64,000 bases of DNA from a virus (Duplodnaviria > Heunggongvirae > Uroviricota > Caudoviricetes), in IMG/VR virus record IMGVR_UViG_648028025_000010; one strand, 5' to 3'. Positions 37,541-43,500 of this stretch are shown piece by piece (position 1 is the first letter of the stretch; each line of letters starts with the position of its first letter). The position numbers were made by a program.

Positions 37541-40500
37541 TCATCCTCTCCGGATAAGGCACGGGCGTATTCTGCCAGTGTTTTCTTGTTGGTTGCTGCA
37601 CCATCCTCTTCCTGCAGGCTCGCCAGCAGTGCACTGAGATCCAGCTGCCAGCGGGAAATACTGATGCGCAGCGCCGCCAGCGCATAAACGAAGCAGTCGA
37701 GCGCCTCATTGCGTCGCTTTTTGCTGTCCCACAGTATTTTTTTCCTGCCATCCACCCATTTTTCGACCTGCTCTTCAGCAGTCAGTTGCTGCGCTTCGGT
37801 AAGATCAAAAATATCCGGGTTATTCGGGAAGTGAACTGCACCGGGAAGCGGTTCATCCCCTTCCGGCGTCAGTGTGAAGCGGTTATAAATCTGCTCTTTC
37901 GCGGTATCCGTACCGATTTCGGTAAGGTAAACCCCGTTTTTGTTTCGCTTACGTGGCATGCTGGCCACCGGCTTTCCGTAGACGGATGCCCCTTTAATGG
38001 GGATCACCCGGAACAGCCCATGTTTTTTCGAGCGTTCATACACAATGGTCGGGTCAATCCCGCCAGTATCCCAGCAGATACGGGATACCGACATTTCTGC
38101 ACCATTCCGGCGGGTATAGGTTTTATTGATGGCCTCATCCACACGCAGCAGCGTCTGTTCATCGTCGTGGCGGCCCATAATAATCTGCCGGTCAATCAGC
38201 CAGCTTTCCTCACCCGGCCCCCATCCCCATACGCGCATTTCGTAGCGGTCCAGCTGGGAGTCGATACCGGCGGTCAGGTAAGCCACACGATCAGGAACGG
38301 GCGCTGAATAATACTCTTTCCGCTCTGCCATCACTTCAGCATCCGGACGTTCGCCGATTTTCGCTTCCCACGTCTCACCGAGCGTGGTGTTCACGAAGGT
38401 TTTACGTTTTCCCGTATCCCCTTTCGTCTTCATCCAGTCTTTGACAATCTGCACCCAGGTGGTGAACGGGCTGTACGCCGTCCAGATGTGAAAGGTCACA
38501 CTGTCAGGCGGTTCAATCTCTTCACCGGATGACGAAAACCAGAGAATGCCATCACGGGTCCAGATCCCGGTCTTTTCGCAGATATAACGGGCATCAGTAA
38601 AGTCCAGCTCCTGCTGGCGGATGACGCAGGCATTATGCTCGCAGAGATAAAACACGCTGGAGGGGTCATCCGGCGTCCATTTGAGGCCAAACGGCGTCTC
38701 TTTGTCGCCAAATTTAAGATACTGCTCCTCCCCGCAGTGCGGGCAGGCAACATGAAAACGCATAAAATGCGGGGATTCACTGGCTGCACGCTCAATCTGG
38801 CAGGTGCCTCTCACTTTGGGCGTGGAGCCACGGATGGACTTTGGCCAGACCGAGCCTTCAATACGCTTGTCACCCAGGAACGTCGGAGAGCCTTCCTGTT
38901 CAATATCCTCATCAAAGGCAGCAAGTTCATCATAACCCGCCACATCAACCGACTTTTCACGGTAGTTTTTTGCCGCTTTACCGCCCAGGCACCAGAAGCC
39001 ACGACCATTGGTGAAACGCTTCATAGTGAGCGTGTTATCCCGGTGCTTTTTGCCATACCACGGGGCCAGAGACAGCAGCGACGGAATATCGCGGATGGTA
39101 GGCTCGACGTGGGTTTTCATAAAGTTCTCGGCATCACCATCCGTCGGCAACCAGATAAGGGTGTTACGCTGCTTATGCTCTATGAAGTAAGCATAAACAC
39201 CCAGCAGCATTTTTGAATAACCAACACGGGCAGACTTCACCACATTCACCTCGCGGATGTAGTCGCTGCCCATCGCATTCATGATAGCCCGCTGAAAGGG
39301 CAGTGTTTCCCAGCGCCCTTCCTGGTATGCGGATTCTTTCGGGAGATAGTAACTGGCATCCGCCCATTCAACGGCAGTCTGTGGCTCCGGCCTGAACAGG
39401 GCTCGCAGCCCGGCGCGTACATCACGCCGCAGAATATCAATCTGACTGTTCGATATATTCACTCAGCAACCCCGGTATCAGTTCATCCAGCGCGGCTGCT
39501 TTGTTCATGGCTTTGATAATATCCCGTTTCAGGAAATCAACATGTCGGTTTTCCAGTTCCGGAAAACGCCGCTGTACTGAGAGAGGGATCCCGTCAAGAA
39601 TACTGGCAATTTCACCTGCGATCCGTGACAGCACGAAAGTACAGAATGCGGTTTCCACCACTTCTGCGGAGTCTCTGGCATTCTTCAGCTCCTGGGCGTC
39701 AGCCTGCGCACGCGTAAGTCGATGGCGTTCGTACTCAATAGTCCCAGGCTGGAGATCTGCCTCGCTGGCAGCCCTGTAATCCTCAACCTCTTTACGGAGT
39801 TTTTCATTTTCGATATCAGCTTCCCTCTGCGCATACCACTGAATTGCCGTGGCGGTATCAAATACAGATTCAACGCCCTTACCACCTCCGGAGACGCAAG
39901 GGAGCCCCTGAGACTGCCAGCGTTCAATCGTTCGCGGATCCACGTTGAAAATTTCGGCAAGTTTCTTTTTATTAACCTTTATGAAACAGTCTCACAACAA
40001 ATACAGGATCCGACATGAAAGTGCCCGAAAATGACTTTTTCAGGCGTTTTCATGTCGGACCTTTACGGATTCGATATTAGAAAAAACAAATAGTTATGTT
40101 CGAGAAGTACCGACATGATTTTCCCCGGAAAATTTTCATAAATAGCGAAAACCCGCGAGGTCGCCGCCCCGTAACCTGTCGGATCGCCGGAAAGGACCCG
40201 CAAAATGATAATAATTATCATCTACATGTCACAACGTGCATCTACGCCATCAAACCACGTCAAATAATCAATTATGACGCAGGTATCGTATTAATTGATC
40301 TGCGTCAACTTAACGTAAAAACAACTTCAGACAATACAAATCAGCGACACTGAATACGGGGCAACCTCATGTCAACGAAGAACAGAACCCGCAGAACAAC
40401 AACCCGCAACATCCGCTTTCCTAACCAAATGATTGAACAAATTAACATCGCTCTTGACCTGAAAGGTTCAGGTAATTTTTCAGCGTGGGTTATTGAAGCC

Positions 40501-43500
40501 TGCAGAAGAAGATTAATTAATGAAAAATATTCTCAATTTGTACCCAACAAAGACAAACACGACCAGAGCACCTGTTCAGACAGGTTTACTTAAACGACTT
40601 ATATATGACACAAAAAGCGACCACTAAAGTCGCTTTTTCTTATGGTAACAGGCAATAACTCTCTCAGATATTTTTTAGCATTTTTTTGACCGCGCGTTTC
40701 CGGACGTATTCTGTTCTCCTGTCCCTTTATATCGTCGGAATACCCGCCGCTCTTCAAATCCCATTCCCAACTCAGAATGTAGTCTGTTGACCGCTTGTTT
40801 TATTTCGGTCAGGTTCACCGGTGAAACCGGAGTCCGGCGCGCCTTACGCAAACACTCTGCTCGTTTCTGTGCCGCCACTTTTCTTTTCTGGTCATCACTT
40901 AGCTGTACCATCACTTTTGCCCATCGTTCAGCTGCTCTCCGGTACAGTCCTTTTTTCTCCAGACATTCTGCCACGTGATCATGTAGCATAAGTGACCTCC
41001 GATTATCTACAGACTGCCATCCTGAATTTACCTTCCCTTAATGAAATAACAATAAAAAACAAACCACGCAAAAACAATAAAACAACACACAAAAAAAACT
41101 AAATAATAAACAAAAATAATCACCTTATTTTATTATTTTTTGAGGGAGCAATTACTGAACAAAAAACGCTGACTATATACTCAAAACCAAACAACTATTC
41201 TGCCAATCAGGTATCATGGCAACACACGGAATTACCGTGTTTTTGCCTTCTCTGCCCATACAATACGGGCATATACTTCATTCTCTATTGTAATATTTCT
41301 ATCCATGTGCCCCACTCCATTTACCTGTAAATAATATTCAAAATATTTATCACAGAAATCGTTTTTGGCCATGAACTGAGCACACTATAAAGTCCGGAAC
41401 TGACTCTTTGTTAAATTACCTTAACGTTACCAGTAACACCTTCATAACAAAACATCACGGTATACACTGGGTACGGATATATTCCTGTGCTCCTTCCAGT
41501 TGCTTCTGCATTGCCATCAGCCGTTCTCTGAGGATGAAATAATCCCGTTCAGCGGCTTCTGCCAGTCGGGGACCGGTTGCATTATCCACGCCGGAGGTGA
41601 TGGGGGCTTTACGCAAGGAGCCTGGACAGTTGGCGTTGATGCGCAGGCGCTTACGACCAGCGGCAACATCAGCACGCAGAGTTTCATTTTCAGCTCTCGC
41701 ATCGGCTAATTCCCTCGAGTATCTGGCATCAAGTGCAGCGACATCACGCTGGCGTATCTGCATATCAGTAATTGTCGCGTTCGCCAGCTCCAGCTCACTG
41801 GCTTTTTTATCGCGCTGCTCTTTGTAGATGATGGCGTGATCACGGTAATGATTCAGCCCCAGACTAAGCGCACCACAGGCCACCAGCAGGACAATGATAA
41901 CCACGCACAGAACACGGTTCATATCACCACCAACGGATTGCCCAGACCAGAACAGCAATGGCCACAATACGAATGGCAAAAGCTGCCGCTCTTGTTAAAT
42001 CCAGACTGGCGTCTCCACTTCAATGCCTTTCATAATGGACAACCTCAGAAAGAATCTTTTATACTTCCTCACAGGGAAAGTACCTCCCTACCCATAATTT
42101 CTCCCTTGCCTTACTCAAGGTCAGAAAACACAAAACCCCGCTTGCTGCCAACAAACGGGTTTTTTACTTTTATTCACTTAGGTTTTACCAGTTTTCAGGA
42201 TTTCGTGTTATCCACCCGCGTTGGCCAACGTCATTTTTCAGGAAAATATTCTGCTATCTGTCGATGTCCCAGCACGCCAGCGCGCTCTCCTGGTCACGCC
42301 GTGAGACCTGACCGTAGCAATTATTTGAACGGATACGGCAGTCTCTGCCACCGTCCTTAATCCACCAGCGAATCGCCTCACAGGCACCTTTTCGATCGCC
42401 TGCATTAATTCGTTTATAAAACGTCGACGGGAAGCACTTACCGGGGCCAATGTTGTACGGACAGAATGACGCGATCCCCGCTTTCTGGGGTTCGGTCAGC
42501 GGCACCCGGATGTTTTTCTCCACCCATGCCAGCGCCTTATCACGTTCAATAGCGTTAACCTGGTCGCATTTTTCCTTCGTCAGTTTCATGCCAGGAATAA
42601 CAGGCTTACCATCCACCCGGGTGGCTCCACGGCAGATGGTCCAGATACCCGCACCATCACGGTATGCCGTGGTGTGGTTACCTTCCTTTTCATCCAGAAA
42701 CTGGTCGAGGATTTCAGGCGCAGACGCCCCTGCACCAATCAGCGCCAGAACGGCAGCCGACAGGCCGTATTTGATTTTTGCGTTCATGGATATTTATCAG
42801 GATTTATCGGTTCCGAATCCCTGGATATGTTAAGCCTTCACCCCACCAGTGGTGGGCACTGGCGGGTTCTTAATTTCCCCGGATGATCGTGGATTACATT
42901 CCACCAGGAGATTACTTATGCTTATCTATCCAGCGGCAGACCTCCGTTTACAGGGACGCAGAGCACAACCATGGGATAAAACAACCACTCATAAATATCG
43001 TCCCGGTCAATATTATGACTTTCGTAAACACCCGGAACTGATCGAGACACACCTTGAGGATTTTGTTGAATATTCAGACAGACAAGCGATTCAGACCTTT
43101 TTTTCTTTTGTTAAGTGGATCAACAGCAATTCATCTGCATTCGAGAGCACGGACTGCATGTTTTCAGGAACACCAAAGGTTGATGAATACGCCCCGGTAT
43201 TTGGTTGCACCCATGCGTCATCTGGCCGCTTCGAATTTTTGTTTCGCGATACGAAAATAAACCAAAATGAGCGAGCTGTCGGATGGGTACTTAACAAACT
43301 ATCGCTCTACCTTCAGAAAGAACGGCCCGATTTTTGTAAAGGAACCTTTGGCATCGTTCCCCTCATGACGGAATATACCGACTCCGGCGGTAACGAGTTC
43401 ACCGGTTATCGTATTTGTGTCTATTTCGATGCTTACGGGAATGGAACAGAGGATACCTGGACTTCTCTCAACATCATGTTTGATGGCCTCATGAAAGCCA

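Follow-up and report, generated by a model that had tools for sequence, protein, structure and literature searches.

What is the regulator gene that lies between the lysis genes and cos in the prophage DNA of IMG/VR record IMGVR_UViG_648028025_000010, and what role should be given to the AT-rich DNA that precedes it? The whole stretch that was analysed, called the window here, is 64,000 nucleotides of Caudoviricetes DNA, and positions are counted from its first letter. The initial annotation placed a PerC-like open reading frame (ORF) on the late strand, with a long A-rich leader in front of it and a ylcI-like gene beside it, and connected the regulator with nleC cargo. We conclude, with a probability of about 0.88, that the region is a pchA-type copy of the pch cargo unit (moron), carried by a lambdoid prophage of O26 enterohaemorrhagic Escherichia coli (EHEC) at ydfJ. 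The unit combines an AT-rich upstream region, a strong Shine-Dalgarno (SD) sequence, pch, and a predicted bidirectional terminator that pch has in common with a convergent YlcI/YnfO gene. The unit and its parts are:

40512-41464, minus strand: pch cargo unit (moron) of ~950 bp, delimited by the match to prophages without pch.
40675-40989, minus strand: pch gene, pchA allele, encoding a 104-residue group 1 Pch protein of the PerC family (Pfam, Sakai identity, RefSeq).
40990-41454, minus strand: upstream regulatory region of pch (promoter and/or 5' untranslated region), 465 bp, recognised by its GC content, Sakai identity and co-inheritance.
40369-40593, plus strand: YlcI/YnfO-family (DUF3950) ORF of 74 residues (PF13132, NF041551, phrog_949).
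40612-40638, both strands: predicted bidirectional intrinsic terminator AAAAAGCGAC-loop-GTCGCTTTTT, with a 10-bp stem and A-run and T-run flanks.

The Pfam model PF06069 matches the pch ORF at profile positions 1-89 of 90 (E=3.8e-44, 149.3 bits with a cut-off of 22.6), a full-length match that places the protein in the PerC family, and the RefSeq product is WP_001303878.1, 'PerC family transcriptional regulator'. PchA (ECs_1091) of prophage Sp4 in E. coli O157:H7 Sakai has exactly the same protein sequence (100% identity), and the coding sequence (CDS) is identical as well. An alignment of 941 bp to the Sakai pchA locus, which runs from the end of Rz through the upstream region and pch to the terminator, contains 939 identical positions (99.8%); both mismatches fall outside the CDS, and the upstream region is identical at 464 of 465 positions. 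The gene is therefore pchA itself. The earlier label 'PerC-like' was right about the family but gives way to the name of a known gene. PchB differs from the protein of the window by one residue (V6L), and the ORF is free of disabling mutations. As in other group 1 members, a 104-residue protein near-identical to PchA, PchB and PchC is encoded in a lambdoid prophage, with the lysis cassette on one side of the gene and cos on the other, a layout that pchA, pchB and pchC all have in Sakai. The feature is thus an already known gene with a known regulatory region, and nothing is new in the gene, the family, the position in the prophage or the main regulators. A sequence search of the PDB gave no solved structural relatives of Pch or of the YlcI-like protein.

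The role in virulence attributed to PerC homologues in prophages, control over LEE, the locus of enterocyte effacement, has been recorded for the identical PchA. The genes pchA, pchB and pchC form group 1 of the pch genes and are needed for full expression of ler and LEE and for adherence (PMC4456613, PMC6265319, PMC4764244). Binding targets of PchA are LEE1 and other horizontally acquired DNA occupied by H-NS, and together with Ler it remodels such DNA (PMC4764244). The PerC protein of the perABC operon, on the EAF (EPEC adherence factor) plasmid of enteropathogenic E. coli (EPEC), belongs to the same Pfam family and also activates LEE1/ler (PMC4456613, PMC4764244), although the dependence of LEE on PerC differs between EPEC and EHEC (PMC4764244). 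EPEC perC is plasmid-borne and follows perA and perB in an operon, whereas pch in the window belongs to a phage cargo unit. PerC-family genes on E. coli plasmids encode proteins 46-48% identical to the pch protein over residues 2-88. This is presumably the level to be expected for EPEC PerC, and we take these plasmid genes to be of the EAF type.

The position of the gene depends on the following late genes and on the cohesive-end site:

42254-42787, minus strand: lysozyme gene.
41455-41979, minus strand: Rz spanin gene, the final lysis gene upstream of pch (PF03245, E=4e-46; RefSeq 'lysis protein').
41517-41702, minus strand: Rz1 ORF embedded in Rz, with a homologous 186-nt 'lipoprotein precursor' annotated within the Sakai Rz genes.
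40158-40169, minus strand: cosN, the 12-base lambda cohesive-end sequence GGGCGGCGACCT, a single exact match with 0.01 expected by chance.
39437-39943, minus strand: Nu1.
37537-39462, minus strand: large terminase gene.

Lysozyme, Rz, Nu1 and the large terminase are all read from the minus strand, which is thus the late strand, and pch lies on it as initially annotated. Because GGGCGGCGACCT was found only once, at 40158-40169 on the minus strand, the description of pch as lying between the lysis genes and cos is literally right. The interval from Rz to Nu1 holds two convincing ORFs, pch on the minus strand and the ylcI-like ORF on the plus strand, and these converge on each other. The second of them also bears out what had been proposed: it scores above the cut-offs for both PF13132 (E=1.8e-18, 66.6 bits, cut-off 25) and the NCBIfam model NF041551 YlcI_YnfO_N (34.6 bits, cut-off 30), and a relaxed Pfam search found no other fold in the protein than DUF3950. 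The predicted terminator between the two genes is invariant in pchA, pchB and pchC and could end both convergent transcripts.

Comparison with related prophages defines what has been inserted. In prophages that lack pch, similarity to the window extends to 40503-40511 and begins again at 41465, so that the left boundary falls inside the ylcI-like ORF, past its DUF3950 domain, and the right boundary in the final codons of Rz. The last ~27 codons of the ylcI-like ORF (40504-40593) lie in DNA found solely with pch, with the DUF3950 domain in the shared part, and the C-terminal tail is therefore specific to pch prophages, unlike that of K-12 YnfO. In the Qin prophage of K-12, which occupies the same ydfJ site, the slot is taken by cspI-ynfN-gnsB-ydfO, and in two other strains it is filled by a hypothetical ORF of 74 or 46 residues; O104:H4 and strain 190693 are among those with different cargo there. 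Since the flanks are shared and other cargo stands between them, the pch-specific DNA is a cargo unit of ~950 bp in a classical variable slot. An insert that is replaced in related phages and that has its own predicted terminator is what the term moron denotes. The Qin cargo resembles the pch unit in its slot between Rz and cos/Nu1, its conserved flanks, the alternative inserts, a terminator of its own and an atypical composition. The bor gene of lambda is a comparable cargo gene of a lambdoid phage in the slot between Rz and cos. The content is what differs: a virulence regulator that acts on an unlinked island in the pch unit, cold-shock functions in Qin, and serum resistance in the case of bor.

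The unit is widespread and very uniform. When 5,426 complete E. coli genomes were searched with an 855-bp query for the unit, 672 of them proved to carry it, at 1,879 places in total and with a median of 3 per genome. Coverage of the query by the best place was at least 80% in each of the 687 records with a match, and identity was at least 99% in 661 of these 687. The upstream region was inherited together with pch in every case. Strains of O157, O26, O111, O103, O145, O121 and similar types are the listed hosts of the unit, and we take them to be LEE-positive pathotypes. Among 50,697 deposited phage records, a single one encodes Pch, and this is a fragment of 1.5 kb; prophages of pathogenic E. 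coli often carry pch, but sequenced free phages essentially lack it.

With so many copies per genome, the one in the window could be a silent or redundant paralogue that plays no part in LEE control here, as has been reported for pchD and pchE of groups 2 and 3, which are dispensable for ler expression (PMC6265319). This is very improbable for a protein identical to the group 1 member PchA, encoded by a gene that has no disabling mutations and whose upstream region is of the pchA type and not degenerate.

No other stretch of the window is as AT-rich as the upstream region, which has 33% GC over its 465 bp compared to a mean of 51%. The ~400 bp described in the initial annotation as AT-rich and rich in A-tracts (41040-41450) have 32% GC, less than 99.98% of windows of equal size and well outside what chance would give. 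Whichever of three window sizes was used, the GC minimum of the full 64 kb lay at 41019-41026. There are seven A-runs, each 4-8 bases long, with starts at 41054, 41070, 41079, 41091, 41112, 41161 and 41183. The name 'leader' given to this tract assumes that it is transcribed. The richness in A is confined to the plus strand, so that the sense strand of pch is rich in T or U.

The region falls into three zones when the window is compared with pchB, pchC, a copy from O121, one from a monkey isolate (92% identical) and a homologue on a plasmid (79% identical). The 5' half, 41147-41454, is well conserved, far more so than the T-rich core next to it. The two other zones are:

41031-41146, minus strand: hypervariable core, T-rich in the sense direction, which separates pchA-type from pchB-type copies (composition and comparison of copies).
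40990-41030, minus strand: conserved SD-proximal segment with GGAGG at -13 to -9, near-invariant across pchA, pchB and pchC.

The core has 23% GC and 53% A on the plus strand. Most DNA differences between pchA and pchB sit in it, while its flanks and the CDS are near-invariant. In the 79%-identical plasmid homologue the T-richness of the core is kept but its sequence is not.

Much is known about the transcription of pch genes in EHEC. LrhA activates pchA and pchB (PMC4456613), whose transcription also answers to Lrp and butyrate, to NtrC, sigma-S and glutamine, and to SOS induction (PMC4456613, PMC13012123, PMC10714755, PMC6265319). Responses of pchA to LrhA, Lrp, NtrC and glutamine were seen in uninduced cultures (PMC4456613, PMC10714755, PMC13012123), and antibiotics that trigger the SOS response strongly induce pch genes, among others (PMC6265319).

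A mechanism for the pchA-type unit can be proposed on this basis. In the lysogen, pch would be read from a promoter of its own, located in the AT-rich tract or immediately upstream of it. The composition of the tract would make it a likely site for control by nucleoid proteins and LrhA, and its sequence differences between paralogues could tune differential transcriptional control. After prophage induction, transcription from the late promoter may also extend into pch, given that the gene follows Rz on the late strand. The PchA produced would activate ler, leading to LEE type III secretion and to delivery of effectors such as the co-carried NleC.

A further level of control acts on translation. 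In pchA the SD region pairs with an anti-SD sequence in the early CDS, which blocks translation, and at low oxygen the small RNA (sRNA) DicF pairs in the CDS and lifts the block (PMC7769764, PMC7873438, PMC9438474). For the window, the minimum free energy fold of -40 to +80 coincides with the centroid fold and buries both the SD and the AUG in nested helices, in which 40990-41030 pairs with codons 8-16; the predicted helices join -28 to -22 with about +39 to +45, and -15 to -9 with about +24 to +31. Among the diverged copies compared, no clear compensatory changes or covariation were found in this fold between leader and CDS. Sites for DicF were predicted in the CDS at +16 to +45, +50 to +79 and +76 to +105, with energies of -25 to -27 kcal/mol; a duplex fold run free of restrictions yielded only long-loop structures of no meaning. 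The DicF-pchA mechanism is said to go back to Melson and Kendall (2019), known here via reviews, and the primary paper on LrhA control is reportedly that of Honda (2009). Because pchA in the window is identical in sequence to the O157 pchA studied experimentally, the published result on DicF should transfer. Two DicF genes are present:

59207-59258, plus strand: DicF sRNA gene of the pch prophage, upstream of dicB (Rfam RF00039, 75 bits, gathering score 48).
7637-7688, plus strand: second DicF copy, in the early region of a neighbouring prophage (RF00039, 77 bits).

The first of these has dicB annotated immediately downstream. The two copies differ at one base (A/G, position 38). Prophage-borne dicF in multiple copies is already on record for EHEC (PMC7873438, PMC8383071).

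Several results weigh against the proposed reading of the unit and its control. In a scan with promoter consensus sequences, promoter-like sites were no commoner than in shuffled sequences, and the sole consensus-like site on the pch strand, at 41222-41194, is weak (9/12). The high-affinity H-NS motif TCGATAAATT is not enriched in the tract and has one match with two mismatches, at 41408-41417. The fold that buries the SD is no more stable than those of shuffled sequences (z=-0.5); as a prediction it is of the kind that the published anti-SD model describes, and it adds no independent support to that model. Pairing with DicF is not better than chance either, as 60 of 200 shuffled DicF sequences matched or beat the best window energy of -28.6 kcal/mol. 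Finally, the function in O26 is an extrapolation from work on O157: activation of LEE1/ler by this copy would follow from the identity with the O157 protein. As for H-NS sites and curvature, to which the initial annotation had pointed, the AT-rich composition and the seven A-runs stand; the phasing of the A-runs is irregular, with spacings of 16, 9, 12 and 21. No H-NS binding data for the region upstream of pch were found in PMC4764244.

The failure of the scan to give a convincing promoter would fit a tract without any regulatory function, a compositional relic or a recombination scar, with pch expressed only in the late transcript upon induction. Poor conservation of the tract sequence between paralogues and the strong response to SOS-inducing antibiotics would agree with this as well. 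However, the T-richness persists where the sequence has changed, even in the plasmid homologue, which lies outside a phage late operon; the unit has its own predicted terminator; and pchA transcription answers to its regulators in uninduced cultures. An inert tract is, in view of these points, hardly to be credited, and a regulatory region upstream of pchA remains the better description.

The well-conserved 5' half of the region contains two further features, from which another explanation could be built:

41232-41372, minus strand: ORF of 46 codons (ORF46) in the pch upstream region, an open frame that matches phrog_2157, function unassigned.
41218-41247, strand not assigned: stable hairpin GGCAA-CACACGG-loop-CCGTGT-TTTTGCC, overlapping the stop codon of ORF46 (fold z=-4.2 on the plus strand, -2.9 on the minus strand).

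In that explanation the upstream region holds an independent gene, encoding either the 46-residue protein or a divergent sRNA of ~100 nt on the plus strand that ends at the hairpin. ORF46 is open in the pchA, pchB, pchC, O121 and A25 copies and matches phrog_2157, a family of unknown function, with E=2.7e-37, and the DNA around it is far better conserved than the T-rich core. As to the sRNA, the hairpin is followed by a T-run on the plus strand, antisense to pch, where alone it is terminator-like, and a weak promoter-like site for that strand is present at 41107-41136. Against the protein, ORF46 has no SD as read from the sequence and was never annotated by RefSeq, and the PHROG match is probably a product of automated ORF calling in EHEC prophages. 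A search of 5.8 billion proteins gave just 11 clusters of relatives, all at least 83% identical and including frameshifted (54 and 58 residues) and truncated (31 residues, E. albertii) forms. In pchC, non-synonymous substitutions, as read from the alignment, outnumber synonymous ones by about 7 to 1. Against the sRNA, the hairpin changes among the copies compared without consistent covariation; a scan of 39500-43000 with Rfam (E<=1) gave only chance microRNA and IS009 matches and none in the leader; and no sRNA near pch is reported in the EHEC sRNA papers PMC7873438 and PMC13502914. An independent gene is thus improbable. No transcript that ends at the hairpin is known. ORF46 as a gene was set aside after tblastn, the PHROG match and the protein search had returned near-identical, often frameshifted or truncated forms only, and it is probably not a gene.

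A more speculative variant, which we consider rather unlikely, is that 41147-41454, inherited only with pch, encodes an undescribed divergent sRNA of the Hfq type (~100 nt, ~41144-41248, plus strand) or a small protein, with the T-rich core acting as a fast-evolving tuning knob through which each paralogue would receive a regulatory input of its own.

The reading as a pchA-type cargo unit can be set against the three group 1 loci of Sakai. The pchA locus in Sp4 has the same spacing of 465 bp from Rz and, like the window, DicF in the same prophage. It differs in that the segment lies inverted, with IS629 at its flanks and the downstream ylcI-like gene cut off, and in that the host is O157, whereas the prophage of the window lies at ydfJ in an O26 host with the region from lysis genes through pch to cos intact. 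In position the window is closer to pchB (ECs_2182, Sp11), which also occupies the ydfJ site, has the order lysozyme-Rz-pch-ylcI-like-cos-Nu1 and keeps the ylcI-like gene intact. However, the T-rich core of pchB, equivalent to 41031-41146, is heavily substituted compared to the window. The upstream region of pchC (Sp14) is near the pchA type. The window has a pchA-type tract at the site held by the pchB prophage in Sakai.

The gene matters as a master switch in EHEC, where it ties LEE type III secretion to prophage content, and with pchA found in it the O26 prophage is correctly labelled a virulence-regulating element. What the present comparison adds is modest: the limits of the pch cargo unit at the level of single bases, the finding that pchA-type and pchB-type copies differ mainly in a T-rich tract of 116 bp, and the occurrence of a pchA-type control region at the chromosomal site of pchB in O157 Sakai.

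The effector gene with which the initial annotation had linked the regulator is in the same prophage:

17208-18194, minus strand: nleC, type III secretion effector gene at the tail-fibre end of the pch prophage (RefSeq annotation of identical O26 sequence).

With pch, DicF and nleC in one prophage, the regulator, an sRNA that activates it and an effector travel on a single element. From ~16.4 to 63 kb the window is near-identical to the prophage at ydfJ in O26 strain RM10386, except for a divergent stretch at ~29-32 kb. The left 16 kb (1-16400) have no match in RM10386 and are identical to O26 strain RM8426, so the prophage and insertion sequence (IS) content beside the pch prophage varies among O26 strains. 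This left part carries early genes of another prophage (exonuclease, integrases) together with the IS elements ISCro1, IS600 and ISEsa1.

In RM10386 the integrase is truncated beside IS600 (~62705-63060), and the tape-measure gene (~27040-29650) and a small ORF upstream of Rz (~41924-42033) are marked as frameshifted, so that the prophage may be defective; the window departs from RM10386 at ~29-32 kb, and the tape-measure defect belongs to the annotation of RM10386.

Elsewhere in the prophage, four further Rfam matches above the gathering score were found, all on the minus strand:

46736-46905, minus strand: STnc100.
52554-52728, minus strand: sok (with hokD).
53437-53521, minus strand: C4 antisense RNA.
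53547-53621, minus strand: isrK.

The interval 42790-44090, which separates the lysozyme gene from a DUF1327 pseudogene, includes ~1 kb that has no RefSeq annotation. Long overlapping ORFs occupy both strands there, one of 233 residues at 42849-43550 on the plus strand and one of 263 residues at 43299-44090 on the minus strand.

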